Assembly (NCBI GenBank): GCA_964035545.1
Contig: OZ037772.1
Span: 744,001-808,000, forward strand
Direction of reading: 5' to 3'
Origin: Bugula neritina
Taxonomy: Eukaryota; Animalia; Bryozoa
DNA: 64,000 bases
In this document: piece by piece, positions 2,603 through 64,000 of the stretch
Layout of the letters: each line of letters begins with the position of its first letter
Position numbering within the stretch: position 1 is the stretch's first letter
Position numbers and translations under genes: made by a program
Notes under the pieces: generated by a model
Told to the model about the DNA's origin: nothing
The model's database searches: none
Seen by the model: the letters and a program-made list of their open reading frames with translations, nothing else

Positions 2603-2735
<133 letters not shown>

Positions 2736-23105: not shown

Positions 23106-23306
23106 GAAGTGTGAGAATTCCATGCTAGTGACCTGCCACACACAGTGCGTGTGTTGCGAGTGCAAAATATTATTAGCAAATGATGTTAGCGTTAAACTTT
23201 ACTGCTCGCCTACAGACGTTTGTTTTTAAACAGCGTCACCGGGCAAAGTAATTTGGATATTATAAAAGCGGAAATGTAAAATATATAAAACTGTTTTAAT
23301 TCAGCT

Positions 23307-23792
23307 CAGTATATTATGTCATACAGCATATTATGTTATACAGTATATTATGTTATACAGTATATTATGTTATAGAGTATATACTATGTTATACAGTATA
23401 CTCTGTTATACAGCATATTATGTTATACAGTATATTATGTTATACAGTATATTATGTTATACAATATATTGTGTTATAATACAGTGTATAATGTTATACA
23501 GTATATTACGCTATACAGCATATTATGTTATACAGTATACTATGTTATACAGTATATTATGTTATACAGTATATACTATGTTATACAGTATACTCTGTTA
23601 TACAGTATAATTATTATGTTATACAGTATACTCTGTTATACAGTATACTATGTTATACAGTATATACTATGTTATACAGTATACTATGTTATACAGTATA
23701 TTATGCTATACAGTATACTATGTTATACAGTATACTATGTTATACAGTATATTATGTTATACAGTATATTATGTTATACAGTATACTGTATA
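23307..23792. repeat. 17-bp minisatellite TATGTTATACAGTATA(T/C), copy 1
   Basis: Direct inspection; explains the YSILCYTV ORFs. Confidence 0.97.
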
Positions 23793-27252: not shown

Positions 27253-30200
27253 ATGGCAGAATCCAGAGTCGTGAAAAAGAGACTCAACAATTCGTATCGC
27301 TGTGGGTACTGCTCGCAGTACTTCAACAAACTTGAAGATCCCAGAACTCTGCCCTGTCTGCATGTGTACTGCATGAGATGTTTGAAGACTGACATAGGTG
27401 GTAGGAAGGATCATATTAGATGTGCTTATTGTAGGTGAGTTACAGTACATAACACAATATATCATGTCATAGGCTTGCGTATGATTTTCTCACTATCATC
27501 TAGGAGTTGTCTGATCTGTGTCTATGAAAAGCAAACAATACTGTATATTCTATGTGAACTCTGGTTACTAACTTGTGGAGTGTGTGGATATCTTTTCATC
27601 AGGTAGAGAAAGTAACTGTTATGTAGATTGCACCATCAGCTGTCCTCTCTTGTTGATTTGTGGTGCCGTTGGATGTCATGGGAGTCAGGTTGTCTCCCCA
27701 TTATATTATTTTGTTCTCGTACAGTACAATACTTGTTAGAGCAGTGGTTCCCAACCTTGTTCATACCATTCCCACTTTTATACATGTTTACTATTAAGTC
27801 CCCTCCATTTCGTCAATCGGAAATTTTTATGACTGTCATAATGATAATATAGATTACTATGCAATATTTTTCCTATTACATTTGAATATAATATAATTAT
27901 TTCTGATAATTATATTATGCATGTGTAAAACACAGAGCAGTTCAATTATTAATATTATGGCTGCAGCTGATGATATTGTACCAGCTTGCTTTCAAACCTT
28001 CCACCCCAACCCCTAAACCCCAACCCCAATATTGTAATTAAAAACACATTCATGTAGAAGTAGACTGAGATGGCAGAACTGGTTAAATAGATAAGCTAAG
28101 ATGAATGCTTATAGATATACATGTACATGTAACTTGCAAGAGCTCAAAAGTCTTCAACAAACTGCTTGAAATTTTCAAAATCGAAATCCAGGCTCCCCCT
28201 AAAATGCCCAAATTCCCTCTTATAGGGGGATTCTCCCAGGTTGGGAACCACTGTGTTGAATTGACTTGTGTTTACTATCTTCTTTCCTGTGATTAGAAAC
28301 ATGTATGATGTTGTCATGACAACAGAGTTGCTGTGGCACAAAGTACAGTTTACTAGTATGTAGTGATTGTGTAGTGAGAGTGGAGTGTCTGGTTATTGTC
28401 CCTGGTTATGTGTGATCTGTAAGGAGTAGAATTATATTATTTTAATATAATGTTGAGAGAGGTACTTTTATAATGGCAGTTTGCTCAATAGCTTTAGTTC
28501 TATTGCGATAGACTCATAGCTCTGGAGTCTAGCAGCTGTTACTATTACCACTAGCTGTTCAAAATTCTGCCAACATCCGGGCTGCCAAAGCATAATAGCC
28601 ATTGACAAGGCCAAGCAGTCACTAGGAAATTATTTGACTAAAGAGCAGGTCTTATGACAATTAGTAGTCAGTCCCTTAGACAGGAATCAGTGATTCTGTG
28701 ACCTATTTAGTTAAATCCAATGCTGACCTTTTGATTGATTATTAGATAGCCATCACAATTTTATTTGGTACAATATAATATTATGGGGTGTCAATCAGTG
28801 TCTAATATAGTCTGTGAATTGAGTGTCTCCTTTAGCTTTGATGAGTTGATTACTTCTTCTACCATCAGTCAGTTGTATTGAGTGTTACTTTGTATTGAGT
28901 CATGAATAGTGTTGAAGATTTGGGCCTATATTATGCCAACCCCCCCCCTCTGACTTAGACTGAGACCCAACCTGCTGCACATACATAGTAGTACTACACT
29001 GAAGATAGTTAACATGTGTATATATCATATACATATATATATATATATATATAACATAATTATATATATACATGCATATATCATCCTACTAGTAATGGAT
29101 TACTAAGTACAAGTTATCCTATGACTCACTCTTCTTATGCTAGCTGCACGAGATAGACAACACTCACACGTGACACGAACTCACAGTGCACTAGCTCTTG
29201 ACACATTGCCAAGGATGATGAAATGACAGTTTCGCGCCACTCCTAGCAGTTAGAGTGGCAGGGAATAGTTGTAGTATGTTGTAGTATTGGATCCTCAGAA
29301 TTCACTCCTCAGTAATTAGTTGCATTGCACAAACTTGCAACAATAGTGAATAATTATTGACAATATGGCCTCCACTTAGTAGTAAACTAGTAATTTATCT
29401 ATCATTTTACAATACAAGTTACAGTTGAGTCTATTTGTTGAGTAGCAGTTCTTTGTCATGAGTGACTATTTTCCAGCATATTAGTACATAATATAGTCAA
29501 GTGTGTTTTTGTGATAGCCTGTGGTCTATATAATGAATGTGTGTTGATGAGTGATGAGTATTTATTTGAGTATTTGTCAAGGACACAGCTGTGTGTGTGG
29601 ATGGAGTATTTCATTACTTGAGATATACTAAACACAGCTAACACAGATAACATACTGATTGCTATATATTGTAGGAAAGATCACTATGACATCACAGATC
29701 CCACAACACTACCAGTAGCTCAGCATGGAGACCCCTTAGAATACAAGTCTCCACCCAAACCTGCACCCATTCCCTGCGATGTGTGTAAAGGTGGAACACA
29801 AGCTGCTGTGTTTTGTCTTGAGAGTCAAAAAAAGTTGTGTCAGCAGCATCAAGAAGTGAGTCTTTCTTATATAATTTCTCAAGATTAGTTACTAAACCAG
29901 TTCTGGTTTGTATGTAGAATATTATTGAAAAGAAATGTTGAGTCTGTGTGACTTTTTATACTAAACACACAGTTTCACAGTGCAGTGAGTCAACTATGAC
30001 AGACTTGTTGGTGAAAATACAACCAACTAAACTGTTGACCTTTATTATACAGAATCACAGGGAGCTGATGGGAGATAGACATCAGTTTATTGACATTGAG
30101 GTCTACAGAGCTTCTCCCCAAAGATATACTATCACTGAATGTGAACATCATAAAGAGGAACAGCTGACAGAAGTGTGTTCCAAGTGTCACCAGATATTCT

Positions 30201-33200
30201 GTATGAGATGTGATATGAGGACTGGCTGTAAGGATAAGACAGGTATTTACTTGCTGTTTCTATTTCTGTAGAAAGAAACTGGGAAATATTACAAGAACCT
30301 GTTTATTATTTTATTATTAAAGTGAGTTATGCAACAGTAAAAGAGGAAGTCAGTTTGTCAGCATTAGGGTTTGTGTGAGACAGAAGTGGATAGTGCAGGA
30401 GTTGATATTCTCACTGTTATGTTGAATATTTAGTATATTTCATCCTTCAAGTGTCTGTTTCCTTGATAAGATGGTATAGGCATAGCTTTAACTCAGTGGT
30501 GTCTCACCTTCTTCATACCATCCTCCTTTTTATGATTATTTTCTATTAAGTTTTCCGCCTTTTTGATAAAATTGTAATTTCATTTATAAAGAAAATCTGG
30601 GACAGGTTGTTTTCCTAATAATTCATTGAATGTAGAAAAAAGCAGCTAGAGTAGAGTGAATATTAGACACATGGATGTAGAAGTAAACTTAGATTGTAGA
30701 GTGTAATGTGGATAAATAAATGAACTACATAAAATGAAGGAGTTATAATTATACATATTCATGTAACCTGGAACACAAGGCAAGAGCTCAAAAAGCTGGT
30801 AACAAACTCTGTGAAATTTTAGAAATGAAAACCCCTAAAAAACTCAAATTTCCTGTGAAGGGGAAATTCCCCAAGGTTGAGAGCCACTGCTTTAATTTTT
30901 TCAACTATTTCATTCCAAGTGCAGTGATTAATGAGCTAACCTCTGACATCTTTCTAGTCCAAGTTCAACTGTCTATAGTTATTACATAGTATGTGTGTAG
31001 TGATACATCATCAACCTGTAGGTACAAGTAGCAGGTGTAGAATAAGTACAATATCACATCTATAATAATGTTTTTATAAATAGTGTGATTTTATGTATAC
31101 AGAGGAGACAGTAGCATCCCATGACTTGGCATCTTTGAGTGATTTGTCTTGTGAGTTACGAGAAAGTCTGACTGGTGGAATAGAGACTCTGTCTGAGAAA
31201 GTTGCAAAGTTGAATGACATCTCAAAGGATGCCTGGAAAGAACTGAGTAAAATAGAAGATGAAGTGAAGAAGATGGTTGCCAGAGTAAACGCTGTAGCTG
31301 ACGCTCAGGTATGCTGACATGGTGATGCCATGTAATATTATTTCTGTTTGTCTGAAATTGGAATTTGCATTTGGTCTTTGAGTTGTAATCAGAAATGAAT
31401 TTCATTTGCCACTAGAATTAACTGGCCATTAAAGTATTATCATTCTGTGTACAAGTAGCAGTAGTCATTCATCACATGTTACTCAGTGCAGAGGAACCTG
31501 TCAATACAGATGACTCACTCATCCTTCTGCAACTGTCAATCACTCACACACAGAGGTTGGCTGGGTGAGTGATTGACAGGTGTCAGGAGGAGGAGACTAG
31601 TCACGTGATGTACTAGCTCTCTGCTGTGTATAGAGTGTCACGTGACTGAGTCATTGTCCACTCAGTGGGTGATCTGTCACTTTCATTTCCAGTGTAGAGG
31701 TTGTGAGGTACAGATGTGGTTACACTGTGTTACTATTTATTAGATAGAAAAGATTAGAAAGAGAGCTACAAACCTGAGGCTAGAAATATATGGATATTTG
31801 AAGAGCTGCACACAGATAGTGGATAATTATAGAATAGAGCTGGCCTTGAGTAAGACAATGGGCAGACAGTCTCTGCTGGACACAGTACAACATGCAGTTG
31901 ATAAGTTCAATGATGCAGGGATTGTGAGAGACTACAAAGAGCTGAGTGAGAAGGTGGAAAAGGCGTCAGATATTGGTGTAATAGAGAAGTGTGTACTTCC
32001 AGACAGCATCTTGTTACCAACATGTAGGTGGAGTCTATAAATAGTAACACTAACTATAAATAACTTTCTGCTTGTAATCATGTGAGTTGTTTTCACTGAA
32101 TATTTGAATAGTAGAATAAGTAGATAGAGTTTATTTATTAGAGAATTGAGTTTTGTTCTACTCTCACATTATGAGACATTTCTGCAGTGTTTCAGAGTTT
32201 ATGATGTATAAGTGAGCTGCTAAACTGTGTTATGCTGACTACCTGCTGTCAGTATTAACAAGATATTCTCACTTAGACCTGTGCATCACGTAGCAACTTG
32301 TAGTAACTACAGACTGCTTGTATTTAAAACATTTTTTTATTTCAAGTTTGAAAAGCTGTTCCCTACTTCTTCAGGTGATGAGATTCTCAAGTTATAGAAT
32401 TGTTATTTTGTTGTTCCAGTCAGTGAAGACAGTCTGGGACTGAAGCTGCTGCAGCCACCATCTTCTCTCCAGTCTGATGGACTTCCTGTACGTGACTCGT
32501 GTACCTCAGTAAACATCTCAGCTGATGGACATCTCATGTGTCGGACACGAGAAGGTGTAGAAGTAATAAATAGAGACACTCTGGATACTATCAGCCCAGT
32601 GAAGGACACCAACACTACAGTGTGGGGGGAGATAATCCAACCTGAAGGGGTGATGGTTGGCAGCTGGTATAACATAGAGGAGGAAACAGCTGAAGCCTCA
32701 CTTCTTGATCCGAACTCCTTTGAGAAGACTCGCTCCCTCTACAAGCAGCCATTAGGTGTACCTGCTTACTATAGAATAGCTCAGCACGACTCACTGCTCT
32801 GTATTGTAGACATGATAGAGAAACAGCTGGTAGTCTGTAACCTAGTTGACAATAAAATGCAGAAGTTCCCACTTCCTGAGATGGAGAACCCTGACCCTGT
32901 ATGCATCCTCCCAGACTCATCTCTCCTCATTGGAGACCGTACTGCAGATGGTAAAGTGAGAAGATATAAAGTGGAGAACACAACTCTCACTCTAATGTGG
33001 GAGTTTCCTCACATCTCATATCCAACTGGTATTTCCTTTGATCCAACATCTGAACTGATTCACATCTGTACATGGCTAGGACCTCTCCTCATCCTCTCAC
33101 TTGAAGGTAAATACTCTGTTTATTATAGTAAGTTTAGTTATTTTATATATAATTATGTTGTAGTAAATAATATATTTTAATAATTAACAGTAAACAACTT

Positions 33201-39737: not shown

Positions 39738-42395
39738 AACAGAGCACCTGTCCCAAACTCCATCTCCACAAAGTCGTCAGCCACAATAGGTATTCTCCTG
39801 TCAGCAAAAAGATGTCTCACAAATTTCCCGTGTAAGTGTTTGTATCGGCCGTCTTCAGGGTGGACAGCCACGGCAGTGTCACCTACAATAGTTACCAGAC
39901 TTTATAGTCTCTCACAGTATTGAGTATTGATATACAATTATATATTTACTGAGTGTTTACCAGATCCAACTTCACAGTCACTATACTCAGAGTACACAAC
40001 TCCCAGTAAGTTAGTATCAAGCTAATTAACCACTAACCCCTTATTCACACTTACCGTATCGTATCGTAACAGCAAATATCAGCCATTTTTACAAATGTCT
40101 GAGCTTCCTGTACGGTGTTGCGGTACGGTAGGATCAAGCACTGCTTGATTCAAATAAGTTGCGGCGGACTCCTATTGGACAGAAAAACTTTTGCGTTAAT
40201 TCATTGGATATAAATGTCTAATGTAGCGTCATAGATCGTACCTAATAGCGGACTTTGAAAACTTCAACCCGCACCTTAAACCAAAATGGAATAATAGAAT
40301 TAAAAAATTTAGGCTATCTCAAGTTCTCCACTACTGCTCCTAAGTGAGAATAGTTAGAGAAATCTACTCGAGTTACTTCAATTGGCAGCAAGAGTCAGCC
40401 ATTATTACGTTGCTAAGCAACAAAGCTATTAGTGACATTGATGTCTACTAACCCAACATAGTTTCTAATCTAGTTGTGGCCACAATAATCTTTTCGTCAG
40501 AATCTTCTACTTTATATGCAAAGGAAAGGAGAATTTCGAACTCCACCTTCTCCTTGTAGCCAGGCACAGAGAGCATAGTCCTTCCTGTCAACTCTACTTT
40601 GTCTACCTGCAATCAGTGATACAACTCTCTCAGACTATACAGGTCAAAGGTTAAACTGTAGTGTGTGCTTCTGAGTCACTGTGTTCTCATTCTTTTCTAT
40701 TAGTTCATATAATGTATATGAATGCTCGTACGAATGAATATGTGGCTGTGGTCTCATTGATGTATTCATTCGAAGATAGTCATAATGTAATATATCAGGC
40801 TGTGTCTGAATACTACTATTAGGTTAGTTACTACCAACACACAAGTCTCGCAGTGAATAACCAGTTGACGTGCACACAGTCGGGAGTCAGACTTATACTG
40901 TACGATATACCTCAATATCAGAGAAGGCAGAGTTGAGAGTACAGGACCAGTTGACCAGTCGGTTAGCTCTGTAGATCACACCTTTCTCGTGCATTCTGAT
41001 AAACGCTTTGTTCACCGCTTTCAAAGATTTCTAATAAACAATTATATATGAGTCATGTGTCAAGTGTGAACTGATTGGAGACCAGGCCTCATGATTAACC
41101 AATCATAGAGAGGATAACACACTGAGTCAGTAAACAGCCGACACGACATATAGACTCCACTACTCAAACATAATATATGTATAGAGAGGATAACTCCTCA
41201 CCTCATCCATAGTGAACGTAGTTCTGTCCCAGTCATAAGACCCGCCCACTTTCCTCAACTGATGGTAGATTCTGTCTTCTTTTCCATAGAAATTATATAA
41301 TAACACTGACCAATCATTGTGCTGCAAAACTTAGTTATATTAGCAACTTAAATAATGAGACCAATGATAGAGTGTGATGAAGTAAACCTATATTTAACTT
41401 TTTGTATATTCAATTATATATAAGAATTTCATCATATTGACGCTATTATATTATCTTATATCAAACTGTAGCAACTGAACACCAATAAGATAAAATAAAA
41501 ACTCAAACCCTAATACTAAGTCACTATGAAATGCATTTTCAAGATAAAATATTCCCTTACTGGTTCTTCCATTCCCACACTCGTCTCACAAACTCATCTC
41601 GTCCCAAATCGTGTCGAGTTTTATTCTCTTCTCTAGCGAGTTTTTTCTCGACGACAACTTGAGTGGCTATTCCTGCGTGGTCACATCCGGGTACAAACAG
41701 TGTCACCTTCCCATTCATCCGGTGCCTGACAATACAACAGAACTGACACCTGCAGACACCTGACAACACAAGCATATCAGACACCTAGAGATATTCTGGA
41801 AAGGTGCTGAAAGAAATATCTGTGGTTGAAACAACATCAATATAATAGATGAATGACTTATGCCAACCGGTACTTAACACAAATTTTATCAGCATTCAAA
41901 AAAGAATTAACAGGGGGATGTTCATAGCCTGTCTGTGGAACATCTCAAAGTGACTTGGCAAGATGCCAAAATGTCATGTAGTCACCACCAGAGGAATGGT
42001 GTCTACTGTTACATGCTATAAGCTACATACACCACCAGTTTAGTGACTAGGTAAGTACGGAGTTGTCTCATCTATATGAATGAACATCTCACCACCGAAC
42101 TATCGCATCCTCAACTGCCCCCAATCACATCTCTCTCGGTTACAAAGTAAAAAGCAACCAATCACAGTACCTGTTACAACAGAGTAACAAATCACACCTC
42201 TACGTGTTAGAAGTAACCAATCACACATTATAGACTTTACTATGATGAGAAATGTACCTTTGAGATTATACTCAGGTTTGAAGAATCCTTCCTTCTCCCA
42301 CCAAGAGCACCAGGCAGCTTCCACATAAGACGGGGAATAAGAACCAGGCATGGGAGACGTCGTGTCTAGAATAACAGAAAACTATAAAGTATAGG

Positions 42396-47677: not shown

Positions 47678-47975
47678 ACAGACTAAACTAGACAGGGGTG
47701 TAGACAGACTAAACTACACAGGGGTGTAGACAAACTAAACTAGACAGGGGTGTAGACAAACTAAACTAGACAGGGGTGTAGACAGACTAAACTACACAGG
47801 GGTGTAGACAAACTAAACTAGACAGGGGTGTAGACAAACTAAACTAGACAGGGGTGTAGGCAGAATAAAATACACAGGGCTGTAGACAGACTAAACTAGA
47901 CAGGGGTGTAGACAGAATAAAATACACAGGGCTGTAAACAGACTAAACTACACTGGGGTGTAGACAGACAAAACT
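47666..47975. repeat. 26-bp minisatellite ACAGGGGTGTAGACAAACTAAACTAG, ~12 units
   Basis: Only 2 units occur at the paralogous site 20591-20640. Confidence 0.96.
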
Positions 47976-48163
47976 TACTACAAACTTATAACTACCTTGT
48001 GTCATGATGTCTTTGTTCTCTCTTATAATTTGACCTTTATTTAGGGAGCAGATTTCAAGTGGGCTATTCTATAGTGACCAGTCACACTGTTTATTATAGC
48101 AACATAGAAATCAAGTTGAAAACTAGTTGCACCTGTTGTGATGCTATCAATGGGTGCTTACAG

Positions 48164-51100
48164 GTAGAGATGGAGTACCTGGACCTGTTGAGATCGGTTA
48201 TCAGGGTAAACAAGGAGATCAAGGTCCTGCAGGTAAGAATGAGGAGTTACTCACCCTTGCTTGTGTATTTCTGTTCTTTTTAGGTATTCTATAATATGCT
48301 GGGGTTTCCCTCACAGCTATTATATATGCTGGAATTCCCCTCACACCTATGATATATGCCGGGGTTTCCCTCACAGCTATGCTATATGCTGGGGTTTCCC
48401 TCACAGCTATTATATATGCTGGAATTCCCCTCACACCTATGCTATATGCCGGGGTTTCCCTCACAGATATTCTATATGCTGGGGTTTCCCTCACAGATAT
48501 GCTATATGCTGGGGTTCTCCTCACAGCTAGTCTGCACTAAGGCAGGGAGTAGGCTAAGTAATCATATTGAATCCCAGCAGTGCTTGTTACTTCAACTGAC
48601 AGGATTACTGTGTATGATAGTTACTCTGAGTGGTTTCCATGGATCATTTTTACCATATTGTTTGCCACATGATGCATTGTCTTAGTAAAAACAAGAAAAC
48701 AAAGAAATATACCAGAAATGTTGAGAATTGTGGTGTTCCAGAATTAATAAATGACCACTTGTAATGCGTACTGGTGCTGCTTGGTTCATAGGACCTGTCG
48801 AACAAGCTGGAGAACCTGGTCTGGATGGCAGAAATGGAAAGACAGGAGAAACTGCACGAACTAGTATGCCTGGTCCAACCGGCTCAAGGGGGGTCACTGG
48901 AGAACCCGGATCTGATGGAAGGTATTTTTTGTGCTTTACTCTACCCTATGCAGCTTCTTGGAACTTTTTATTTGATTTAGTTTTTATAATTTGTTATCAA
49001 TTTTTTCAGAGACGGTTTACCTGGAGTACCGGGTGCTGATGGTAGACCTGGGGAGCAGGGTGATCAAGGAGACAAGGGTGATAAGGTAAGAACATTCTTT
49101 ATTCAGTTTTCTATTTATTTCAGTTCTCTGGTTTTCCACTAGTCAATCCTGTAGTTGTTTATTTGTTTTAGTTTATTTATGTTAATACTAAAGTTGCTTC
49201 AGTGACATCACATGATGTAATATATTACATAACAGTGCAGTATAATACACCATAATATAATATGTTATACAATACAATAATATTACAGAAAATATAATTC
49301 ACTAATATCTCACAGCTAAGGTGTGTCTCCTAAATATATTCATTACTATAGGGACCAGCTGGGCCACAGGGTGCTTCTGGACCAACTGGATTGTCTGGGC
49401 CAACTGGTCCTCAGGGACCCCAGGGAGCTTCCGGGAATTCCCGGCGAACAAGGACCTAAAGGTATGAATTAAGTTGAACCAATCTTTGTCCTTAGTTATT
49501 GGCCATCAACAGAATCTTGACTCTAAGAGTTATCCTACTTGGTAAGAAGGTAAGGCAATTCCTAACTCATGATAATATGAATATCATCTGCTGTTGTAAG
49601 ACCCACTGGTTTCCAGGGACCTCAGGGATTCCTCGGAGCTCCTGGTGTTGATGGTTAAAGGGGAGATGTTGGATCAGTTGGCATTGCTGGACCACCCGGG
49701 CTACGGGGTGCTGACGGCAAAGAAGGAATAACTGGTCTTCTGGTGCTATGGGACCACCTGGACCTGATGGTGCTAAGGTAAACACTTACACTGTTAGCAG
49801 GTTATTGTTATTCATCTTGTTGGTTTAGTGGTAATAAACCAATAGTTCTAGGGTGAGCAAAGGAGAGTTGGGGAAATGGGTAGTCCTGGCAGTCCTGGAC
49901 CTCCTGGACCACCTGGTGAAGCCCCAGTATTTGGTTAGTTATTAGCAAAGCCAAGTTATTGTCCATTACTTGTATCTTTTTTTATTTTCTTTCAACTGTT
50001 TATTGGTAATATTTTGGGAATTTCATCCATAGCCTGTGGTTGAAGCTTTATTTTATTCTACCATGGGTTATGTTAGGCGCGCCCCCTATGATGATGAGTG
50101 CAATGATGTCCAACGGTAAAGGTGTACAAGCAGATGATGCAGGCGCCAACAATGAGCTCTATAATATGTACCTCAGTGAGTAATGGTCATGATGTGCTTT
50201 GATGTTGCCTGCTTTGTAGTGGAAAAGATCTTTTAAATAGTGTTTTGGAACTCAAATGACGGACCTGTTTCAAATTGTGTGTATGTTTTTACAGACAAAC
50301 AATTTTATAATTTACTGCTAGAAACTATTGTAATAAAAATATAGACAGCTGTTATAATGTATTTTTCCTCCTAGCATTGATGATTGACATTCTTGTTTGA
50401 TGAGTCACCTATTTAGTTCGTTTCTCCAGTTAAATGTTTCTACATTCTGACATATTATATAATGTTGATTTATTGCTGTTAGCTTACATAACTACTTCCA
50501 CTTTATTTCTCTAGAAACAGAAGTAAGAGACGGGTCCAAAGACGGCCCTGTTAGAGACTGTAGAGAACTCTTCACTGAAAACCCAGACTTCAAAAGTGGA
50601 ACTTATTGGGTGAGATAAGATGCTGATATGTTTCTATTTTCTCTGCTCAGAAGAAATCTGCATCCAAGTCTAATGACTGAAATTTTGTGAACATGTTTTA
50701 CATTCTACAATTACTACTCCTGAGGTGTCAATATCATGTCACGTGAAGTTTCCACAGATATTTAATGTTTAAGAATAAGAGTTTTTCCATGAGTTGCCTG
50801 TATTATATAATTCTGTATATTTAACAGCTGAACAGGTTTTAGAAGTTTTATGTGATGTTTGTATTGTGTTAGTGTGAAAAAGAGAAGTTGTATTCTCTAT
50901 TGTTTGTTGTCAGGTGGATCCAGATGGTGGCTCCATAGCTAATGCTATCCAGGCTTACTGTCGCAAGGAAAGGAAGAGCACTTGTATTAATGCCAATACC
51001 TCTGAGTTTGCCACCAAATCGTACGTCACCCAGCAGCTAGATAATCAGCCATTCGTTGCTAAACACATGGGAACAACAATTGTGAGTGTTTATCTTGCAT

Positions 51101-52087
51101 CAACCATGACTTTCTCAGTAATACTTGAGAATATTCAAAAGTTTTATGTTGAGAATTGTCGCTATAGTAACATATTTGTTTACTGTATGGATGTTGATAA
51201 GTGTTGCTATAGTAACATGTTGGTTTCCTGTATGGATGTTGATAAGTGTTGCTATAGTAACATGTTGGTTTCCTGTATGGATTGTAGTTTGAGTATCAGG
51301 CAGAGTCTTCCCAACTCAACTTCCTTCGAATTCATTCTGAGAGAGCAAAGCAAACCCTGACTTACAGGTAATAGTCACTGCTAGCAGCTTATCAAATAGT
51401 CACTAGTTGCTAGTCACCAGTTGCTAGTTGCCAATCACCAGATACTAGTCCTCTACTATGTTGCAAGTCACTTGATAATCTGAACAATCACAGGCTTTTT
51501 TAAGCTGAGCGAGTTGTTGGTATGACTATTCCTTTTGTCGATTGTAGATGTATAAACTCAGTGGCGGTAGAAGACGCATACGGTAGGAAGAATAAGTCAG
51601 TCATTTTATATACAGCTGGTGATAAAGAATACACAGCGACAGATAGCAGGTTTCAATATTCAGTGCTGCAGGATGATTGCAAGGTATGTAAATGTGACCT
51701 ATATAATGTAAATCTGACCTATATAGTGTAAACCTGATCTATATAGTGTAAATCTGACTTCTATAGTGTGAATATGACCTGCATATGCACATGATTGCGA
51801 TAGTTGCATCTTTTGTTCTATTAATTTACTGTGGAGCTTGCTTTTGAGGCTTGTAATAAATGTTTACGAGTTCAACCCAAAAGCCACTTTGAGTGCTGTA
51901 CGAGTTTAGAGTTTTGAGTTTGCCGTCTGCCATTTTGTAGTATGCCAAATCATCAGAAGCTCAGACAGTGATTGAGATCGACACCAAGACCGCCACCCAC
52001 TTGCCTATTATTGACATTGCTCCTGGTGACATCGGGACCACCCACAAAGAGTTTGGGGTTCAGCTTGGAGAAGTCTGCTTTTCATAG
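48164..52087 (+). pseudogene. Fibrillar collagen 3' portion, copy 2: broken Gly-X-Y exons but open COLFI C-propeptide
   Basis: Helix exons 48164-48232, 48792-48921, about 49010-49085, 49352-49461 (frameshift) and about 49600-49777 (TAA and frameshift). The following exons are in frame: 49852-49933, 50077-50175 (QADDA), 50515-50609 (DGSKDGPVRDC..SGTYW), 50914-51081 (VDPDGG..AIQAYC..TCI), 51288-51367 (QLNFLR..AKQTLTY), 51548-51683 and 51941-52087 (LPIIDIAPGDIG..FGVQLGEVCFS*). AATAAA at 52247. Confidence 0.92.
48290..48530. repeat. 30-bp minisatellite TATATGCTGGGGTTTCCCTCACAGCTATGC, ~8 units
   Basis: 10-aa periodicity in the overlapping ORFs. Confidence 0.95.
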
Positions 52088-52794
52088 ACTCATATCTAAC
52101 AACAGTTTTATTTGTCTGATTTGTAAGACTGTCCCTGATTAGATAATTAGTGGCCAATCAGAGAATTCAATCAATGTTGGTTGGCTGAGACCAGCAGTCT
52201 GATTCTTATATAACCTAATTTTTAAATGAAATATTTGATTACTCTAAATAAATTTATCCGAGACTTCCAAGGCAGTGATGGTGATTTTTGTACATATAAA
52301 TTTGAAGGAGTTTAGCTATAGGGTTTATGCTGTTCTTTTAATTATTCCACCATAACCTGAGATTGTGAGTAGTAGTTCTAGAATGAGGTAGGGAGGGTGT
52401 AACGCCCTTCCCTATGACTTTATATATTTAGAAACTGTTGTTAATTTAGTAATTCTGTTGGTGCTACATTTTTAAATTCATTTAATCCAACCATTTCTCT
52501 ATTACAAAATATATTTTACCATAAGGTGCTACACAATTTATTTCTCAGCTTGTAGATTTCATCATCAAAATTATTGAAGTAATAAAATTGGTCAAGAATT
52601 TGAAAGAAGCTGCAGTTTTCAGATCTGATTATTTAACCTATTCATCCTGAAATGAGACATTGTTAGTTTAAAATGGAATTTAACATATATTTTAGTTACT
52701 TAGTTCCAACTGTGTTGACCATATCCACATTTTAAATTTTACTTTGGCTGCTATGAAGTATATAAGCAAATGGCATTGAGTTATTAATATATAA

Positions 52795-53020
52795 TAAGGT
52801 TTGCAAAGACTTAACATACCAAGCAACTGTGACAAGACATGACAATAACTCCAGCCAATCATACATATCATACATACATCATACATAGCCTAAAATGGAT
52901 CATTTTAAAAATTTGTAAATCATACTCAAACCTAATCAACAGCTTTAACTTATGTAGCTATGAGAAATATGTAATTTTTAAACAACCGGAGTTATCCACT
53001 CTCAACAAACGCAAAGAGCG
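52795..53020 (+). mobile_element. Penelope GIY-YIG fragment, copy 2 with internal deletion
   Basis: Paralog of 22770-23105 lacking the YIG..HKASF segment. Confidence 0.8.
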
Positions 53021-53152
53021 AAGTGTGAAAATTCCACGCTAGTGACCTGCCACACACAGTGCGTGTGTTGCGAGTGCAAAATATTATTAGCAAATGATGT
53101 TAGCGTTAAACTTTACTGCTCGCCTACAGATGTTTGTTTTTAAACAGCGTCA

Positions 53153-53662
53153 CTATGTTATACAGTATATTATGTCATACAGTATATTATGTCATACAGT
53201 ATACTATGTTATACAGTATATTATGTTATACAGTATATTATGTTATACAGTATATTATGTTATACAGTATACTATGTTATACAGTATACTATGTTATACA
53301 GTATAGTATGTTATACAGTATACTATGTTATACAGTATATCATGTTATACAGTATACTATGTTATACAGTATATTATGTTATACAGTATATTATGTTATA
53401 CAGTATACTATGTTATACAGTATATTATGTTATACAGTATATACTATGTTATACAGTATACTCTGTTATACAGTATAATTATTATGTTATACAGTATACT
53501 CTGTTATACAGTATACTATGTTATACAGTATATACTATGTTATACAGTATACTATGTTATACAGTATATTATGCTATACAGTATACTATGTTATACAGTA
53601 TACTATGTTATACAGTATATTATGTTATACAGTATATTATGTTATACAGTATACTGTATACT
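53153..53662. repeat. 17-bp minisatellite, copy 2
   Basis: Same unit as 23307-23792. Confidence 0.97.
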
Positions 53663-56600
53663 GTCATTGAGCTGGTTTACAGTGAAGGATGATTTGCTAA
53701 ATTTTGTGTTTTTATATAAGATAGGATTCCTTCAATTAATATGCTAATGGTTAGGAATCAGCAAATAAACTGCCTTGACCTGCAAAGTGACCTACAATGT
53801 ACAGCTTGCCAAAACCCAAGTCAAACTTAAGCAAGCTGCAGCACAAATTCACCAGCTGCAGCCATAGTATTAATAATTAAACTGCTCTGTGCTTTTTACA
53901 TGCATAATATAATAATCATAATCTTATATTATAATCAAATAAACTAGAACAAATATAGCCTTCTATAGTATATTATGCCTATCACTCATAAATTGCACTT
54001 TTAGAAAAAGGGGAACTCAATAGTAAACAGTTATGGAAGGGGAGATGGTGGTATGAAAAAGGTTTGGAACCACTGAGCTAGAGGAACCACCATACCTCTA
54101 CCATAGCATCACATCCCTCTGCCATCTTGATTGCAGCCTGCCAGTTAAGAAAATTCAGGATTAATCAGATGTTCAGTGATGTCGCTGAATATGCTATAGT
54201 ACTAAACAGCTCAACTTAAACATAATAAAAATATTTTACATAATGAAAGTACAAACAAAAAGATGCAAGTGCTAGCTGACACTGAAGGAGACTAATAAGA
54301 GACAAAGTCCTTGTAAAGATTTTGCTACTAAAAAGGACATAGATGTTATTGGTATTTTTGTAATTTGAAAATATACAGGACCGGAATTGGATATTCTAAA
54401 ATAGCTCAATTGAAAAACATGCACACCTGGTGCCCTGGATAATTTGTCAGATTTCAACCTAAGAGTTGTCTCTCTTCGACGCTAAAATATAGCGCCACAG
54501 CATAGTTAAGGTCATCCCCAGCAAAGAATCATCTCATAATCTAGTCTCAGTTCTTATATGCTAATGCTCTGTGGGCGGCATGCGTATTGCCTACTTGTTA
54601 TAATTTAGTATGAAGTTGAACAATTGCTAACAAACCATCACATTAGCTAGGGCTGCGCCTATCTTTCCATTGCAACTATTATCACTATCTGTTGAGCAAG
54701 CACGTGATCGTGGCACGCCTCAGCATCACATAATTATTACATCAGGCTGGTGCATGGTTCATTTCATGTACAATATACTTGATGCACAAAAACAGATGAT
54801 TTTCATAATTTCTGTTAAGCGAACAATGTAAAACTATTTCAGATTCTGGAAGCAAGCTAAATGTTTATATTTTTACTCAATATATTTTATCGATTTGGCT
54901 AGTCTAATGAAATAATTATTGACTATAACTTTTGAAATGATAATGCAGTTATTATTTAAATAACTTAGAATGCAGATGCAACAAATAGTTTAGACTTTAG
55001 AGAGATGCTCTTTTCTCAAAACATGATGTTTTTAGGCTAGACTATTTATATATATCTGCTCAATACTATTGACTGACCTTAAACCAATTATACCTTTATT
55101 ATTAAAATCATCTTTAGTTGCATTAACTAAAAACTAAAATTGACTTCTTAGTGCTGACTCTTACTATCAGTTACAGACAGCCCAATAGCTTAGCATAGTA
55201 AAGAGACTTGTGTAGATAAGATAGTTATGTGTGTGAGAATTTATTGGTAGCTGTAAGGGGCAGATATGCAGTATTTTGTGTGACTGCTTTGAGTTTGGGT
55301 AAAGAATTTGATTGCTGCAAATTTCTAATAAAGCTATAGTACTTGTGTTGTCCCTTTGGTACTATAAGTACAAGCATTAATCAACACTCATTGAAGTGAG
55401 TTGGAACTTATATATAAAAGGTTAAAACGTGAGCCTGTGCTATAAATATTCTATTTGCTTCCTGTTGTATACAGTCTAAACTCTGAAGGGTCCAATCAAG
55501 CCTACATGGCTTCTAGCTGAGTGTCCAAATTGACTATGAGCTATATCTTGTTGCTCAACACTGAGCTACTGGGCACTGCTGGCAACTGCTAACGCAGTGT
55601 TCACTCCAGCATGATATTATGGACTTGTATGCCAACTCAGAGCCAAGATTATCAACTGTTTTATGTTTCTAAATTTAGCATCTAATAGAAAAAGCTGTGT
55701 CTAGTTAGACTGACTGACACCATGCTTGCCTGAGTTAAACAGTCAAGATGAAAAGTTTTAATCTTAGCTAGGCAAGTATTGAGATTTTGAAAAGAAAGCC
55801 TCCTTAAGATAAAATAAAAGATATCCATTGAGGATTCAGATTTCTTCCAGTCTCATAGGTGTCATTTAATCAGCTCAAATATTAGCAATGCATTAGCCTA
55901 TCTGCCATATTTTGATACTGCAGATATAACATTCCATAACAAGAATTGACTTAAGAATTTAGACATGTGTAACAAATCAACCAGATTTATTTAAACACTA
56001 AATAGCCATTACTAAAGATCACAACAAAAATCAGTGTGGATCTTAAAGCATAACATAATTATTTTATATCTGTATGATCAGGCATAGAAGTAACAAGTTC
56101 AATAAATAAATTGAACATGCAGAAGGTATAACAGCTGTGAACTATTGTGAAGAAGCAAGTCAGGTCTTTTTATAGAAATACATCCTATACGTATATTACA
56201 AACATGGGGGAAATAATAGGTTAGTTTCCTAATTGTTTTTCTCAAACGTTAAATAATGAATAATGGCAAGACTGACTTTGTAAAGAAGCAGAATCTATAG
56301 AAAATCAAGCTGCAAAAGCCTAACCAAAAGACACATTGCTAGGGTGATTAGTCCTATCGATTATTTTAAGTTTAATTTTAGTTTTTATATCCTTTGATAA
56401 AAGTCCTATTTCCACAGGTAGAGTCTTGAGATATAGGTGTCAATTGCAGAGTATTATCATTTTTGAATATAAAAAAAAAGAGTAGAGTGGAGTAGAGAAT
56501 CTAAAGATCCTATAAGAGCTGCAGCTGACATTATAGAAAGGATGTCCTGAGAAGACACACTAGCATTTCTTTGACAAAACCTGATCATCTAGTAGTCCAC

Positions 56601-57256: not shown

Positions 57257-57666
57257 TGTAGTGAATTTTGCCAGTTCACTATTATTATTTGTGGGTCTAC
57301 TTAATCAAAGCCACTGCGACAGGTTGTTTACGATAAGATATTTTATTAGTTATACAAATACAAGAAGGTTATTTACTGCTAGCATGAATAGAAAATGATT
57401 ACATAATTAAAGAGCTTTAATACACAACTGTTCTAAATGAAGTCCCAAGCTGCTCTGCCGGCTAGCTACTCAGCGCACTGCAACTACGAGTAGCTAGCTC
57501 CACCTGCTATCAATTAATGTCATTGTCCTGATTGGTGGCTACTAGTGGTGCCACTACTGCCCATAGCTACACTCCGACAGTGTCGAACTCACAAGATACA
57601 TAAAACAATATAGAGTAAACCTTTTCGATTAATACCATAATACTTGTACTACTAAAATCTATCACA
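57257..57666 (-). repeat. 3' LTR (~410 bp), preceded by polypurine tract at 57667-57678
   Basis: Minus strand: PPT AGGTGAGGAGAG, then TGTGATAGATTTT...AAAATTCACTACA (TG..CA, imperfect inverted ends). It contains CCAAT (about 57530), TATTAAA (about 57420) and AATAAA (about 57345) in order. The 5' LTR is not available to confirm. Confidence 0.75.
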
Positions 57667-57909
57667 CTCTCCTCACCTATCGAAAAGTACTCTCTAGACT
57701 TAATATTTACATGACAGTAATACACGAATAATAATGAAGGTAGCATAGTGCTTTACAAAACTAGGGTACAATTGAACAAGAGAAAATATATATACAGAGT
57801 AGATAACATGAGTATAATAAATGAGTCTTCACGCCGTAGTCCATAACACTTATTTACACTGCTTGACTAGCCAGGAGGGGGGGGGGTAAATGTATAGGTG
57901 GCCGCACCT

Positions 57910-59105
57910 CTAGCACTTCTTTGCCAGCCGTTTCTCTAGTCGGGTCTGCAACTTAGCCAGCTCGGTGGTTGCTCGCTTCTGTTCCTTACTGAGACGAGCC
58001 ATACGCCGTTGTACTTTCCTAATGTCGGCTAGTAGGGATTGGTCAGGGTCGCTGTCGTTTCGGGGTGTGTTGCTAGCACCCCTCTTCTTCTTATGGGTGT
58101 GTCGGGGTACATAGGAGATTGTCGTCGTTGGGGGTTGTGAGTCCTTCGTCACAGCGCGTCCAGCACGGGTTACTATGACGCGTAGAGGTTGGGTGGTTAC
58201 GTCTGGAGGGTAGGTAGTCGTTGTTTCGGAGGGTTGGGGGTCTGCATCAGAGTCACTCTCTACTGTAGGTCGGGTAGCGGGGAAGTGGTCCAGGAGAGTC
58301 TGTCGTCGGTCCGGGTCAGTCACGTGGGGTAGTATTAGGTCCCGGAACTCCGTGTAAGAGTCTGCGTCGACTTCATACAAGTGCCCTACGTAACAGTCTC
58401 TAGTTCGTTGGTGTCTCAGTATCGTGTCCCTGCAGAAGTGGTGAACTCCGCAGGGACAGAAAGTCACAGTAAAGTGTTGTGGAACGTGTATTCTCAGTCT
58501 CCTAGTAGTCGATAGTATTCTTCTACATTCAGTGCATTGTCTATTGTCGTCCGTCCCTACTATTGCTTCTATCAATGTTCGAGTCCGTCGAGTCGTCCAG
58601 TTAGTCCGTCCCAGTAAGGCTCTTGGTAGTGCTAGAGTAGTGTCCTTGGCTACAGTCAAGTCATCAGTCAAGTCGTTGGTATCAATTTGCATCGCAGTGT
58701 GTGTCGGGGAGTCCGTAAATGTTGCTAAATGTATGTCGGACAGCATGTCTACCCCTGCTTCTGACATGCTGTCCCAGTTAGTCGTAGGCGTGTCAAGTAA
58801 TGCCTGTATCTCGTCGGATACAGGCTCAGTCTCACCTGCAATAGAGTATTTAAATTTAATTATACTCTATGCGTGGGACTCCCGTTCCAAACAATATTAA
58901 TAATCGAGTCCCACTGTCACTCACTGATCGTGTAATCAGCTGAGTTGACTGTCCCACTCCAATTATCAATATCATTCGCTGTCAGGAGTTTCAACTTTAT
59001 CATTATGACAAAGTGAGACTGCTGTCGCTACCAGAATAAATTCTAATTAATTATTATAGAATTTCTAGTAGACTTACCCCCCAAAACAGTTGCTGCATTA
59101 GACAT
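57910..59105 (-). CDS. Accessory ORF3 of the Gypsy element: spliced zinc-finger/coiled-coil protein (~317 aa; 285 aa if only exon 2 ATG is used)
   Basis: Exon 1 59105-59078 (MSNAATVLG+G, donor G|GTAAGT) and exon 2 58835-57910 (acceptor ctctattgcag|) join in frame. The protein has C-x2-C-x12-H-x3-H, C-x-C-x12-H-x5-C, HKKKR and a C-terminal heptad helix. Confidence 0.75.
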
Positions 59106-59345
59106 AATGATGCTGCTGCTTTCTTAGGGCTCGTAGATAGCCAAATTATTTATTGCAAAAGACGTGCTGCCTGTTTGCTAGCTGTAATTGAAAAGAGCGC
59201 TCACAGCTAGAGTGCTTATGTAACACCCTATACGCTGTGATTTGGCTACGCTCTGCTGACCCCCGGCTGACCTATTCAATCCACCACTGGGTCGCCTGTT
59301 ATCAATTACCTCGCTCCCCCAGACTCCTTTGTGAATGTCGCCATG

Positions 59346-62300
59346 CTACAGAATACTGTGCATGTCGACCAAGTCACACAAGAAGTCTTTTAAATAAGAT
59401 GGTGGCGCCCTGGTACGTTGGCTACGGTCCAACGGTACCGGGGAGTTTGCTGCGACTGGCGACTCTTCCACCATGGGTGGTGTCGCCAGTACGGGGGGGT
59501 CCACCAGTACGGGTGGCCCTCCCCCAGCTGCCTCTCCCTCAGTATCCTGAGGAATTTCCATCTCATCCGGAACGATGGGCCTGTCGACCGGCTCCACAGG
59601 TGGTGGGGCCGGCTCCGACAGGTCTTCAGGTGTGTCGACCTCCTCTTCCTGGGGTGGAGGAGGTTGGGGCTGGTCGGCTGACGCATCAGCCGCCCCGTCC
59701 TGGTCTGGCAGTATCTCCTCAATCTCTCGATATGCCATGGGTCGCCCCCTCATAGGAGGGCGCCTAGCTGGCTCTAAGAGAGGAGGTGCTTGACCTGCCG
59801 CATCAGGACTCGACCAGTGAGGTTTAAGCCGTGCCTCGTTCTGGACCGACACTTGTCCAGACCGTTCCACTTTGTATGTATGATTTGGCATTACCTCAAT
59901 TACACAGTAGGGACCTACGAACTTCGGCTGCAACTTGGCTGCCTGTCTGCGCCTGCGGCGATGACTGGTCATCCAGACCCAGTCCCCCACCTTGTATAAG
60001 GGTGGGTCGTCAGAGTCACCACTCCTGACCTGCCACTGCTGCTCACGTAGCACCTCGTGAGCCGTCCCCATGCGTTTTACGAGCTTGTCCACGTAGTCGT
60101 GGACATTGCTCTCTGGATTCGGAACATGATAGGTTACGTGCTCAGGAACCCTTGTTTCTCTCCCCATCATGAGAAAATTAGGGGTCTCCAGTGTACTGGA
60201 GTGAAGGGTACTACGGTACGCTCGCATGATCTGCGGCAACACCAAGTCCCACTCTTCCTGGCTCCTACCGATAAGCAGGCTTCTCAGAGAGTCCCCTAGC
60301 ATTCGGTTGTTCCGCTCCACGACCCCGTTCCCTTGCGGGTGATACGGGGTCGTCCGACTCTGGTTTACCCCCCACACTCTACAGAGATCGCTCATAAGTT
60401 GCGACTGAAACTGGGCGCCCTGGTCAGAGTGTATCTGCTCCGGCAAGCCGAAATAGCAGAACACCTGTTGATCCAGAGCTCTGGCCACCGAGGGGGCCGA
60501 CGCATCTGGAATAGCTAGTGCATCAGACCACCGCGTGAAATGGTCAGTTAATACCAGTATCCAGTTATTACCTCTCGCTGTAGTGGGCATGGGGCCTACC
60601 AGATCGACAGCAACCACCTGCCACGGACGACCGGCATGGAGGCGACGCCTCCCTGCGGTCTCAGCGGGGCGGCCATGCTTGCTAGCTTGGCACACCTCGC
60701 ACTTCCGCACCCGGAGTCGGACATCCCGGGTCATACCGGGCCAAAACCACTGGAGTTGAAGACACCTGATCACCCGGCTAGCTCCTGCGTGAGCTTGCTT
60801 ATGGGTGTCCCAGATCAACTCCCGCCGCAGAGCTGACGGGCAGACTACCCTCTCTCGTTCACTGCGATTGGTGCCGACTGCCAACGTAATCGTTAGCAGC
60901 CCATCGCTGTCGAACCTTAGGGAGTCCCAGCGGTCACAGAAGTACTTAAACTCAGTACTCTTCACTCGCTGTTCGGCCTCACTCGGCCGCCGTCCCTCCT
61001 TCTTGGCCCGGACTAGGTCAGCTACCACTCCTGGTAGCGTGGACTGGAGCCGACATAGCTCCCTGACGTTCCGAAGCAACGTGGGGTTTGCGTGAAGGTT
61101 GTTAACAGCTTTGTTGGGTGATTCGGACAGGAGTTGCCCTTCTTCCCAGCTGTACACACCCGCTTTCCCCAACTGCGCTTCGACGTCCGAGCGAGGGGGT
61201 CCACCGTCCTTGCGCTCGATATTCTGGCATTGCTTACACCCATCTGCCTGGCGGCGGCTGAGTCCATCTGCATTACCGTGTTTCTTACCGGGTCGATGCT
61301 CGATCCGATAAGAAAACTCTGCCAGGATCTCTAGCCAGCGCGCCACTTGGCTGGATGGTTCTGCCCGTCAACACAGCCATATCAGGGACGCATGATCCGT
61401 CCGAAGCCGGAATGTGCGCCCATATAGATATGGTCTAAAGTGTTTGACCGCCTTGACTACTGCCAAGAGTTCCCTCCTGGTTGTACAGTAGTTCTTCTCA
61501 GGCGCCGACAGGGCCTTGCTATAGTAAGCCACCACCACCTCGCGACCATCTTGGACCTGCGACAGCACAGCCCCCACATTATGGTTACTGGCATCAGTAT
61601 CCAAAATGTACTCCTTCGCAGGGTCAGGATACGCCAAGATGGGTGCTTCCACCAGGCGATCCTTCAGGTGGTCAAATGCCTTCTGCTCAACCTGTGTCCA
61701 CTGCCATCGCACCCCCTTTGCGGTCAGCCGATTTAACGGCTGTGCAATTCCTGCGAAGCCTGGTATGTACTGACGATAGTACCCCACCAGCCCCCAGGAA
61801 CGCCCGCAATTCAGAGAGGTCGACAGGAACAGCCCAGTCCCTCACAGCCCGTACCTTCTCGGGGTCAGTGGCGACCCCGTCTCGACCAACTACATGGCCC
61901 AGGTACTTGACCTCGCGTTGCAGTAATGCACACTTCGAGGGCTTTAGCTTCAGGTTAGCAGCTCGGAGTCTGTCGAACACCTCCCTGAGTCGACTGACAT
62001 GTGTGTCGAAGTCGGGGGAGATGACGATGACATCATCGAGATATATGAGCAAGGTCTTCCAGTGCAGCCCACTCAGGACCTGCTCCATGAGTCGCTGGAA
62101 GGTGGCTGGTGCGGACGTAAGTCCGAAGGGCAACACCTTCCATTTCCAGAGCCCATCCCGCGTTATGAACGCGGCCTTGTCCTGTGCTTCAGGACTCAGG
62201 GGCACCTGCCAATACCCGCTTAGCAAGTCCAACGTGCTGAAGAACTTGCTACCAGCTAAGGCATCGAGCGACTCATCGATCCTCGGGAGAGGGTAAGCGT

Positions 62301-63828
62301 CCTGGATGGTCACGCTGTTCAGCCTGCGATAATCAACGCAAAACCTCCAGCTACCATCCTTTTTCCGAACCAGGACGACTGGAGAACTCCAGGCCCCATG
62401 GCCTGGCTCAATCAGGTCCCGGTTCAGAAGGTCTTGCACCTGACGGCTCACTTCTCTCTCCTTCTCAGGACCTAACCGGCGGGTCGGCTGCCGAATCGGC
62501 ACCGTCCCCGCCGCCAGGGGTATCTCATGACGAACCGTCTCAGTCAGACCCATGTCATGGTCGCCGCAACTGAACACGTCCTTGTACTCAGAGAGTAGCC
62601 GCGCCATCACCAGGCGTTCTCGCTTGCTCTCGCAGCCATCACAGGCATCCTCGTACAACTCTGTTACGTGTTCAGGCACCGGCCCCCTGCCGTCTCTAGT
62701 GGGTACTCCCCGGGCACCGCCCGCTGTTTCCAGCGCGGGCCCTACATCCTCCTCTTGCACGGAGTGGAACTTCCCTACTAGAGACCCAGCCGGTAATTCT
62801 ACCGGCTCCGTGAAAGGGTTTACGCACTGGACCAGGAACTCCCTCCGCTCATCCAGTCTATTCAGACTGTTAGCGAGCTGGACGCCCCCCAGTGCACCTT
62901 CCACCACTCCGAGCTCGGAGATCTCCCTACAGTTCACTCTGCAGCGAACTGTAGCCCGGGAGCGCCCAGGTACAGTACAGCGCTGTACCACCTGCACTCC
63001 CCCCACCAAGGGTCGGCCAAATCGGTCGACACAGGCCAGCTCACGCCCCGCCATCACTACTGCCGACTTGCTAAAGTCGATGTAGCACCTGTGTCTCTTC
63101 AGAAATGGCATGCCCAAGATGGCATCCTCCTTGAGTTGACTGACGATGAAGGTCTCACTGATCATCTGATCACGGACTCTACCAGTCAACTGGATTACCC
63201 CATAGAAAGGAATACACGACCCGTCCGCCAACGTGCCGTGTTCCCCCTCATATGGTTCTAGGCTAGCCCTGTCCTTGGCACTGAGAGTGTCGAAGAGACG
63301 TCGACTCAGTAGATTTGTGGTACACCCAGTATCCAACAGGAATGTGGCAGCTTTACCAGCAATTTTGCCGGGGAGGAAATAGCTGCTTCCATATGGCTGG
63401 GCGCTCACTGAGCGATTTGTCTCTTGAGGCGACACCTCATGTGCATGGAATTGGGGATGCACCTGTGCTTTGCGGTTGCGAGGGGGTCGTCGACGTTGCA
63501 TGGGCGGGCAGGGTACGTCTCGGTCTCGCTCACGCACGGGCGGCCGAGTGAATTCTCGGACTGATGCTCGTGCGGGCAACCGAGGAAAATCCCTGTTGTG
63601 CTCCCATTCGTCGTTCACTCCCTCATCAAGCAAACCTTCAAAGCGGTTTTTGAGTGCCCAAGCCGGAGGTATTGGTGGGCCTTGCGGCCGACTCACTCTC
63701 CTTGGGACTTGCCACTCTGGCGAAGGCGGCCTCCTCACCCGATGGGGTGGGGGCCGTAGCCTTTGCCTTGGGGGGTTAAACTCGGGCCCACGGTAGGCGG
63801 AAGTTACCGTGGGCCGTCGCTGTTTAAC
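59346..63828 (-). pseudogene. pol: Gypsy pol (protease, RT, RNase H, integrase) with one frameshift and one in-frame stop
   Basis: FLLDTG; RFCVDYRRLN, LPFGL, YLDD; DTDAS..RELLA..TDH; H-H..C-C, D-D-E and GPY integrase motifs. There is an extra G in a G-run at about 61790-61795 (FLG|LVGYYR) and a TGA at 61368-61370. Confidence 0.95.
63785..63828 (-). promoter_or_regulatory. Programmed -1 ribosomal frameshift signal (gag-pol)
   Basis: Heptamer G TTA AAC, 6-nt spacer, then perfect 11-bp stem GGCCCACGGTA/TACCGTGGGCC with a 9-nt loop; pol is in the -1 frame. Confidence 0.8.
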
Positions 63829-64000
63829 CGCCTCCCACTGCCGCGGGGGCAACTTCGTAGGAAGTGCCCACCACTACCACAGCCCCAGCATACAGGGCCG
63901 CGCCTGTCGGCGACAGCTACCGACGACCTCTTGGGTCTCTCGGCTGTCGCCTGCTGGCGCAGTTGCCTGAACTCGGCGAGCAGTTCTCGAATCAAGCTCG
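63804..64000 (-). CDS. gag: gag C-terminus with CCHC zinc knuckle (partial)
   Basis: CWGCGSGGHFLRSC = C-x2-C-x4-H-x4-C. Confidence 0.9.
   Translation of the reverse strand, partial: SLIRELLAEFRQLRQQATAERPKRSSVAVADRRGPVCWGCGSGGHFLRSCPRGSGRRLNSDGPR

Follow-up and report, generated by a model that had tools for sequence, protein, structure and literature searches.

If a Gypsy-type retrotransposon carries, in the position of env, an open gene that is not env, what kind of gene is it and what does its product do? A locus in a 64,000-nt stretch of Bugula neritina DNA (the window) raises this question. The answer to which our analysis points, with a rough probability of 0.42, is that the gene, ORF3, is a conserved third Gypsy gene that is very likely spliced, and that its two-zinc-finger protein would work in the nucleus, where it would bind DNA and regulate how the element itself is transcribed.

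According to reading frames and Pfam, positions 64000-57257 of the minus strand are the 3' portion of a Gypsy LTR retrotransposon of an animal genome. The frames and Pfam also place the pol domains in the order PR-RT-RH-IN, as in Ty3/Gypsy (Metaviridae), and the closest solved reverse transcriptase is that of Ty3 (E 1e-49; best retroviral-type RT, 1e-21). The element and its third gene are laid out as follows:

63804..63998, minus strand: last part of gag, including a CCHC knuckle (the remaining gag and the 5' LTR lie outside the window)
63785..63828, minus strand: likely gag-pol -1 frameshift signal, judged by its form (heptamer GTTAAAC, 6-nt spacer, 11-bp hairpin)
61687..63873, minus strand: pol protease and reverse transcriptase; a frameshift near 61790 breaks the frame
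61368..61841, minus strand: pol RNase H frame, with a premature stop at its end (61368-61370)
59346..61367, minus strand: pol integrase (H2C2, rve, SH3, Pro/Glu-rich tail, terminal motif at aa 643-665 of the frame)
59106..59345, minus strand: non-coding spacer of 240 nt, a candidate internal promoter and leader
59078..59105, minus strand: ORF3 exon 1, with the ATG (28 nt, 9 codons plus 1 base; donor GTAAGT)
58836..59077, minus strand: ORF3 intron, GT-AG, 242 nt, ending in TTGCAG
57910..58835, minus strand: ORF3 exon 2, 926 nt
57667..57681, minus strand: polypurine tract (PPT)
57257..57666, minus strand: inferred 3' LTR, 410 bp, TGT..ACA, with its TGT at 57666 directly after the PPT and AATAAA at 57347

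Pol lies in the -1 frame relative to gag, and the hairpin of the putative frameshift signal has a z of -5.4, with an equally stable one in 0/200 shuffles. The LTR marks within the window are the PPT and a single TGT..ACA block, with no second LTR copy to compare; because the 5' LTR lies outside the window, the LTR ends are placed by these marks and by a rise in summed contig depth at the block. The same depth is about 2,100-3,600 over ORF3 and about 12,000-45,000 over pol, a difference that may reflect quicker divergence of ORF3 or relatives that do not have it. Elsewhere in the window, where the host-gene domain scan covered 60 of 149 candidate frames, a duplicated segment (~20600-23800 and 47900-53700, about 27-30 kb apart and 90-96% identical) has a 17-nt tandem array within each of its copies, and collagen triple-helix and COLFI exons lie near it (19119, 20278, 48755, 50878 and 51504). 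RING and B-box exons at 27196-27435 and 29942-30268 (+) likely belong to a TRIM-type host gene, and we also noted a BTB-domain exon (309-584, +) and an exon of a class I aminoacyl-tRNA synthetase (41560-41784, -).

The original prediction had placed a two-exon gene between the integrase stop and the PPT and 3' LTR, and our analysis reproduced its coordinates and its 317-aa product. The spliced translation has a single stop, at its end; without splicing, the frame of the ATG hits a stop after 20 codons. GC content is 0.355 in the intron vs 0.519 in exon 2, which stays open in 0/20,000 base shuffles. It is also true, as had been claimed, that ORF3 is open while pol carries two lesions, the frameshift near 61790 and the stop at 61368-61370. 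One relative, the protein record P0012, matches the start of spliced ORF3 without a gap (36/45 residues identical; exon 1 peptide, 8/8) and reads through in the spliced register, and therefore its DNA lacks an intron at exactly these ends; its source may be RNA, an intron-less copy or a retro-copied spliced RNA, or else a deletion may have occurred at a short shared word. The A-G-E peptide that results from an unspliced reading of the acceptor is kept in P0007, P0034, P0008, P0021, P0056 and P0083, in which the sequence upstream is unlike. The P0012 register, the conserved acceptor peptide and a bias of indels towards the intron (see below) agree with the predicted join of 59078 to 58835, and from these comparisons of sequence we regard splicing at these sites as very likely.

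No contig among the sibling DNA contigs joins exon 1 to exon 2, and the sibling DNA copies keep the intron, from which we infer that the genomic RNA usually retains it, as had been proposed. Two sibling contigs differ in the interior of the intron (58856-58985) but retain its final 20 bases ahead of the acceptor. Another possible acceptor, at 59182, which would give a spliced RNA started in the LTR, is disfavoured, with an AG that differs in ~57% of contig depth. That the intron is not real, and that translation begins from the in-frame ATG of aa 33 in exon 2 (a matter of gene structure only, combinable with other readings), is very improbable: database records mostly begin at the aa 33 Met or a later Met, and joined exons are absent from the DNA contigs, but such records are apparently splice-blind gene calls, judging by starts that fall inside the intron, while the codons 5' of the aa 33 ATG are conserved among relatives, the acceptor is kept and P0012 crosses the junction exactly.

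Sibling copies, read from one DNA run, were used to ask how ORF3 varies, with variants taken as the 40 best-supported of 144. Exon 2 holds 34 of these 40, with 26 synonymous changes (10.8 expected) and eight non-synonymous ones; at least 26 synonymous changes were reached in 0/20,000 simulations, and the rough omega is 0.14 for these best 40 of 144 variants. For 12 listed of 13 indels, seven fall in the intron, four upstream and one in exon 2 (p=1e-4). The check first proposed was for conservation of ORF3 in sibling copies with dN/dS<1; these counts support its standing as a real gene of the element, under purifying selection.

The protein itself can be divided into the following parts:

58252..58641, minus strand: conserved compact domain with both fingers, aa 75-204
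58474..58536, minus strand: finger 1, C2H2, C-x2-C-x12-H-x3-H, aa 110-130
58393..58458, minus strand: finger 2, C-x-C-x12-H-x5-C, aa 136-157
58081..58095, minus strand: basic patch HKKKR, aa 257-261, a candidate nuclear localisation signal
57919..58047, minus strand: terminal long helix, a predicted coiled coil

All of the motifs first read from this sequence (the C2H2 finger, the CxC-x12-H-x5-C finger, HKKKR and the terminal coiled coil, as a prediction) were found again. Finger 1 fits the C2H2 consensus C-x2-C-x3-F-x5-L-x2-H-x3-H, with Leu at the Phe site in this copy and Phe there in 55/116 family rows. Pfam returned no match for this copy of ORF3 at E<=1; its C2H2 model matches finger 1 weakly in some relatives, and the family profile recognises finger 1 too. 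With a shallow alignment AlphaFold reached a pLDDT of 46.8 and modelled only the terminal helix well (pLDDT of that helix, 96-98), and with 105 sequences it gave a single compact domain (pLDDT 93.5, pTM 0.85), in whose fold the two fingers are predicted to sit as a tandem pair. The highest 19-residue hydropathy is 0.74, as for a protein without a membrane segment, and a value above 1.6 occurs in only three of 157 relatives; together with the zinc-finger domain of the model, this upholds the view that ORF3 is not env-like.

Comparisons of structure point to C2H2 fingers. The best PDB matches of the family profile are C2H2 arrays (E 1e-6), and the modelled finger pair overlays the DNA-bound pairs of Kaiso, SALL4, ZBTB20 and CTCF at an rmsd of 2.3-2.8 A over 50-57 residues, with Z 3.0-3.6. 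Foldseek with the domain model found no match at E<=1e-3 in PDB or BFVD; none of the VIA-align matches listed covers the whole domain, which does not make the fold new. In the ESM Atlas, unnamed clusters scored 0.94 and C2H2-labelled clusters 0.92-0.93. No catalytic or known chromatin-reader domain was seen, either by Pfam on this copy and its relatives or in the structure overlay.

ORF3 belongs to a family that is broad and uneven in its conservation. A protein search gave 33 close relatives with 39-99% identity, and a profile search 186 clusters at E<=1e-3, 64 of them at 1e-10. Within the close family the core is 78% identical vs 55-59% for the N-terminus, linker and coil. Across the 116 rows spanning the core, conservation is 96-99% at seven of the zinc ligands, and the eighth position holds Cys in 65% (finger 1, 96-99%; finger 2, 97, 97, 97 and 65%), W89, T94, V165 and D166 are likewise kept, and conserved arginines stand on both finger helices (Arg122 in 92/116 rows, Arg145 in 98/116). 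The N-side is net acidic in 10/10 close and 57/67 distant members and the C-terminal side net basic in 22/22 close members; the heptad score of the terminal helix beats all 30 shuffles in 67/82 members, and a basic cluster was counted in 51/82, a count made without a control. Judged from these sequences, the layout is family-wide: an acidic N-terminus, then the two-finger domain and a basic patch, with a heptad helix at the end. No Pfam model is dedicated to the family, and no published description of it was found in the literature covered, a scope that left Repbase/GyDB and most subscription papers outside.

Where would transcription of such a gene start? A TATA-like box had been read as its promoter signal. 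The word TACATAAG does lie at 59222-59215, 117 nt upstream of the ORF3 ATG exon, but when the 240-nt region was dinucleotide-shuffled 1,000 times, 46% of the shuffles contained such a match, and because of this we count it as no evidence. No motif common to LTR and spacer stood above chance (best 6-mer, P 0.16). Of the original prediction, an element-borne, non-env gene that is under selection and very likely spliced is supported, a nuclear regulatory role is plausible, and the TATA promoter signal falls away. Internal promoters do have precedents: some Tor LTR elements drive env from one (PMC4402516, accessible text), and Grande gene23, which encodes a nuclear accessory protein, has its own promoter (PMC7264820, accessible text).

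As a regulator of the element's own transcription, ORF3 would work as follows. A short RNA starting after pol would be spliced and translated into the ORF3 protein, with the genomic RNA keeping the intron; the protein would dimerise via its terminal coil, bind a site in the LTR or in its own promoter and, as foamy-virus Tas does, activate transcription through its acidic end. A protein of this kind would act in trans, which is how ORF3 could stay intact although the pol of its copy is broken. The acidic end, the tandem fingers with conserved arginines, the basic patch and the coil together resemble a dimeric transcription factor in their arrangement, and the finger-pair overlays, the profile matches to C2H2 arrays and the kept Arg122 and Arg145 may be taken as hints of DNA binding, in part dependent on the model. 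Against this, the structural matches are weak, at Z 3.0-3.6 and with nothing from Foldseek at E<=1e-3, and C2H2 fingers bind RNA and proteins too. The TATA-like word is at chance level, LTR and spacer share no motif beyond chance, and contig depth over ORF3 is far under that of pol. An in-frame integrase-tail-like motif in six relatives fits a tether of integration better, and CERV, the one tested Gypsy analogue, serves RNA export and not transcription, according to the accessible part of PMC10309623.

Export of RNA is one rival reading. A Rev/CERV-like protein, made from the spliced RNA, could multimerise on the unspliced genomic RNA and take it out of the nucleus, and we think this rather unlikely. 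The element must export an RNA that contains a GT-AG intron, the intron being kept in sibling DNA; the C-terminal side is net basic in all 22 close members; and CERV, which performs export, combines a cysteine finger with a basic NLS and a zipper, as described in the available text of PMC10309623. However, the cysteine pattern of ORF3 is unlike that of CERV, the CERV G domain is without a counterpart here, and the fingers overlay DNA-bound tandem pairs. Distant relatives, moreover, seem to have long continuous N-termini and no trace of an intron, and therefore the domain may predate the export problem.

Chromodomains steer integrase in chromoviruses. In like manner, the finger domain could recognise chromatin or DNA and guide the integrase, as a fusion in some lineages and in trans here. 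The original prediction missed this reading, which we consider unlikely; it is raised by the domain's place in frame behind an integrase-tail-like motif in six relatives (P0031, P0079, P0115, P0137, P0138 and P0159). In all, eight relatives' protein records have pol-like pieces in frame before the finger domain. In the other two, P0164 and P0168, a piece of integrase or of the protease-RT linker stands at the start and is followed directly by the finger domain; they are probably internally deleted elements. A profile of the six motifs, run against 1,993 frames, matched solely the end of the window's integrase (E 1.8e-5), a test that is partly circular because the motifs were chosen for their likeness to the window's motif. 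The integrase-tail pattern had eight matches vs a shuffled mean of 1.3 and maximum of 4; three of the eight were dropped for positions within or after the finger domain.

The pol-tied records sit on both sides of a quick tree, itself poorly resolved, and therefore suggest an old tie to Gypsy pol; on this tree neither label clusters beyond shuffles. A separate start exon and intron would then possibly be a later feature of the present element's branch. Yet the rve domain was found in 0/50 relatives scanned, and a search for long fused forms at 558-2,000 aa and 1,300-3,710 aa found none, which is weak evidence. Scans of metagenome, viral and genome contigs confirmed no DNA locus of a relative, so that the env-slot position of relatives follows from the pol pieces in protein records alone. 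In this copy the stop at 59346 and 240 nt separate integrase from ORF3, and a chromovirus-type fusion is absent; an in-frame position at the integrase C-terminus is apparently seen in the six relatives. The present gene, in addition, starts from a separate ATG exon and encodes an acidic N-terminus, and Cer1 also shares a frame with pol, yet CERV is made by splicing (PMC10309623, accessible part).

A look-up of 30 clusters gave organism names for three, all bryozoan, one Watersipora subatra and two Bugula neritina (gene models XP_067940963.1, KAF6037488.1 and KAF6040922.1). The corresponding records (P0186/P0040, P0187 and P0194) are annotated genes, with the domain in two tandem copies in Watersipora subatra and two genes in Bugula neritina; they are either domesticated genes or annotated element copies. 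One bryozoan gene is sister to the present element's clade (support 90 on the quick tree). An anti-silencing or host-directed factor, which would block repression by binding either the element's DNA or a chromatin or small-RNA protein of the host, or a captured host transcription-factor gene that mainly benefits the host, would suit these three annotated relatives and an ORF3 that is intact although pol is broken, but no catalytic or known chromatin-reader domain was seen, the bryozoan genes are scattered at three separate places among element-linked rows of the quick tree, as annotated or domesticated element copies would be, and we hold this explanation to be quite improbable.

We return to self-regulation of transcription as the preferred reading. 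Gypsy elements are usually thought to depend on host transcription factors, and a conserved regulator encoded by the element would permit a direct test of self-regulation with one protein, a 410-bp LTR and a 240-bp spacer. A wider picture, tentative and in our judgement somewhat doubtful, is that animal Gypsy elements include a lineage, old and diverse, of 'complex' retrotransposons, in which every element would encode a dimeric transcription factor that is sequence-specific and belongs to a double-finger family not yet described; the gene would be fused to pol in some branches and would have acquired a promoter, a start exon and an intron of its own here, a Tas-like feedback switch that arose independently of retroviruses, and bryozoan hosts would have domesticated it more than once. 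Whatever its role, an intron that persists through reverse transcription makes a clean model for the balance of spliced and genomic RNA. The domain family folds well in prediction and spans at least 186 clusters, for which Pfam has no dedicated model; in bryozoan genomes its members are being recorded as ordinary C2H2 genes of the host.

How does ORF3 compare with known systems? The novelty first claimed for it was overstated: third ORFs that are non-env, nuclear or spliced are already known from CERV, Grande gene23 and the rotifer ORF3s, with non-env ORF3s of animal LTR elements in PMC5408684 and spliced, nuclear CERV in PMC10309623, as far as the accessible parts of these papers go. Bdelloid rotifer LTR elements likewise carry a non-env third ORF, there a GDSL esterase, a DEDDy nuclease, or a membrane or coiled-coil protein (PMC5408684, accessible part). 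Tor ORF3 has an internal promoter, but encodes a membrane glycoprotein and is unspliced when internally promoted (PMC4402516, accessible part). Grande gene23 and other additional ORFs of plants also sit in the stretch from pol to the 3' LTR, with a nuclear product and their own promoter, but they belong to plant elements and are antisense, and the word 'zinc' is absent from the available text of PMC7264820 and PMC11963269. It is absent as well from that of PMC13524379 and PMC8220671, which have no bearing on the ORF3 family. Troyka elements have CG..CG ends (PMC12440569, accessible part), whereas the present element has TGT..ACA.

At the level of the domain, the likeness is to the tandem C2H2 domains of Kaiso, SALL4 and CTCF, with a canonical finger 1 and a pair overlay at 2.3-2.8 A over 50-57 residues, while the short linker, the C-x-C spacing, the variable fourth ligand and the Z of 3.0-3.6 set ORF3 apart, and its flanking helices and strand have no listed match in those domains. 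At the level of function, the model is foamy-virus Tas/Bet, an accessory regulator whose gene lies close to the 3' LTR and whose RNA is spliced and internally promoted; Tas is a DNA-binding activator of the LTR and the internal promoter. Foamy viruses are Retroviridae with env, and we claim no homology (all from the accessible part of PMC13220597). The nearest counterpart within Ty3/Gypsy is CERV of the C. elegans element Cer1, which is non-env, partly encoded in the env slot, spliced and nuclear, as ORF3 is or would be; its cysteine finger comes with a basic NLS and a zipper, and its ORF, like that of some relatives of ORF3, is in frame with the polyprotein. CERV is needed for export of genomic RNA and not for transcription, has five exons, three of them shared with gag, a C4-type loop and a G-protein-like domain, and the accessible text reports no obvious homologues outside nematodes (PMC10309623). 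ORF3, set beside that description, begins with a separate ATG exon after pol and encodes 317 aa with two C2H2-type fingers, and because the described architectures differ we place it as an analogue of CERV and not as a member of its family.
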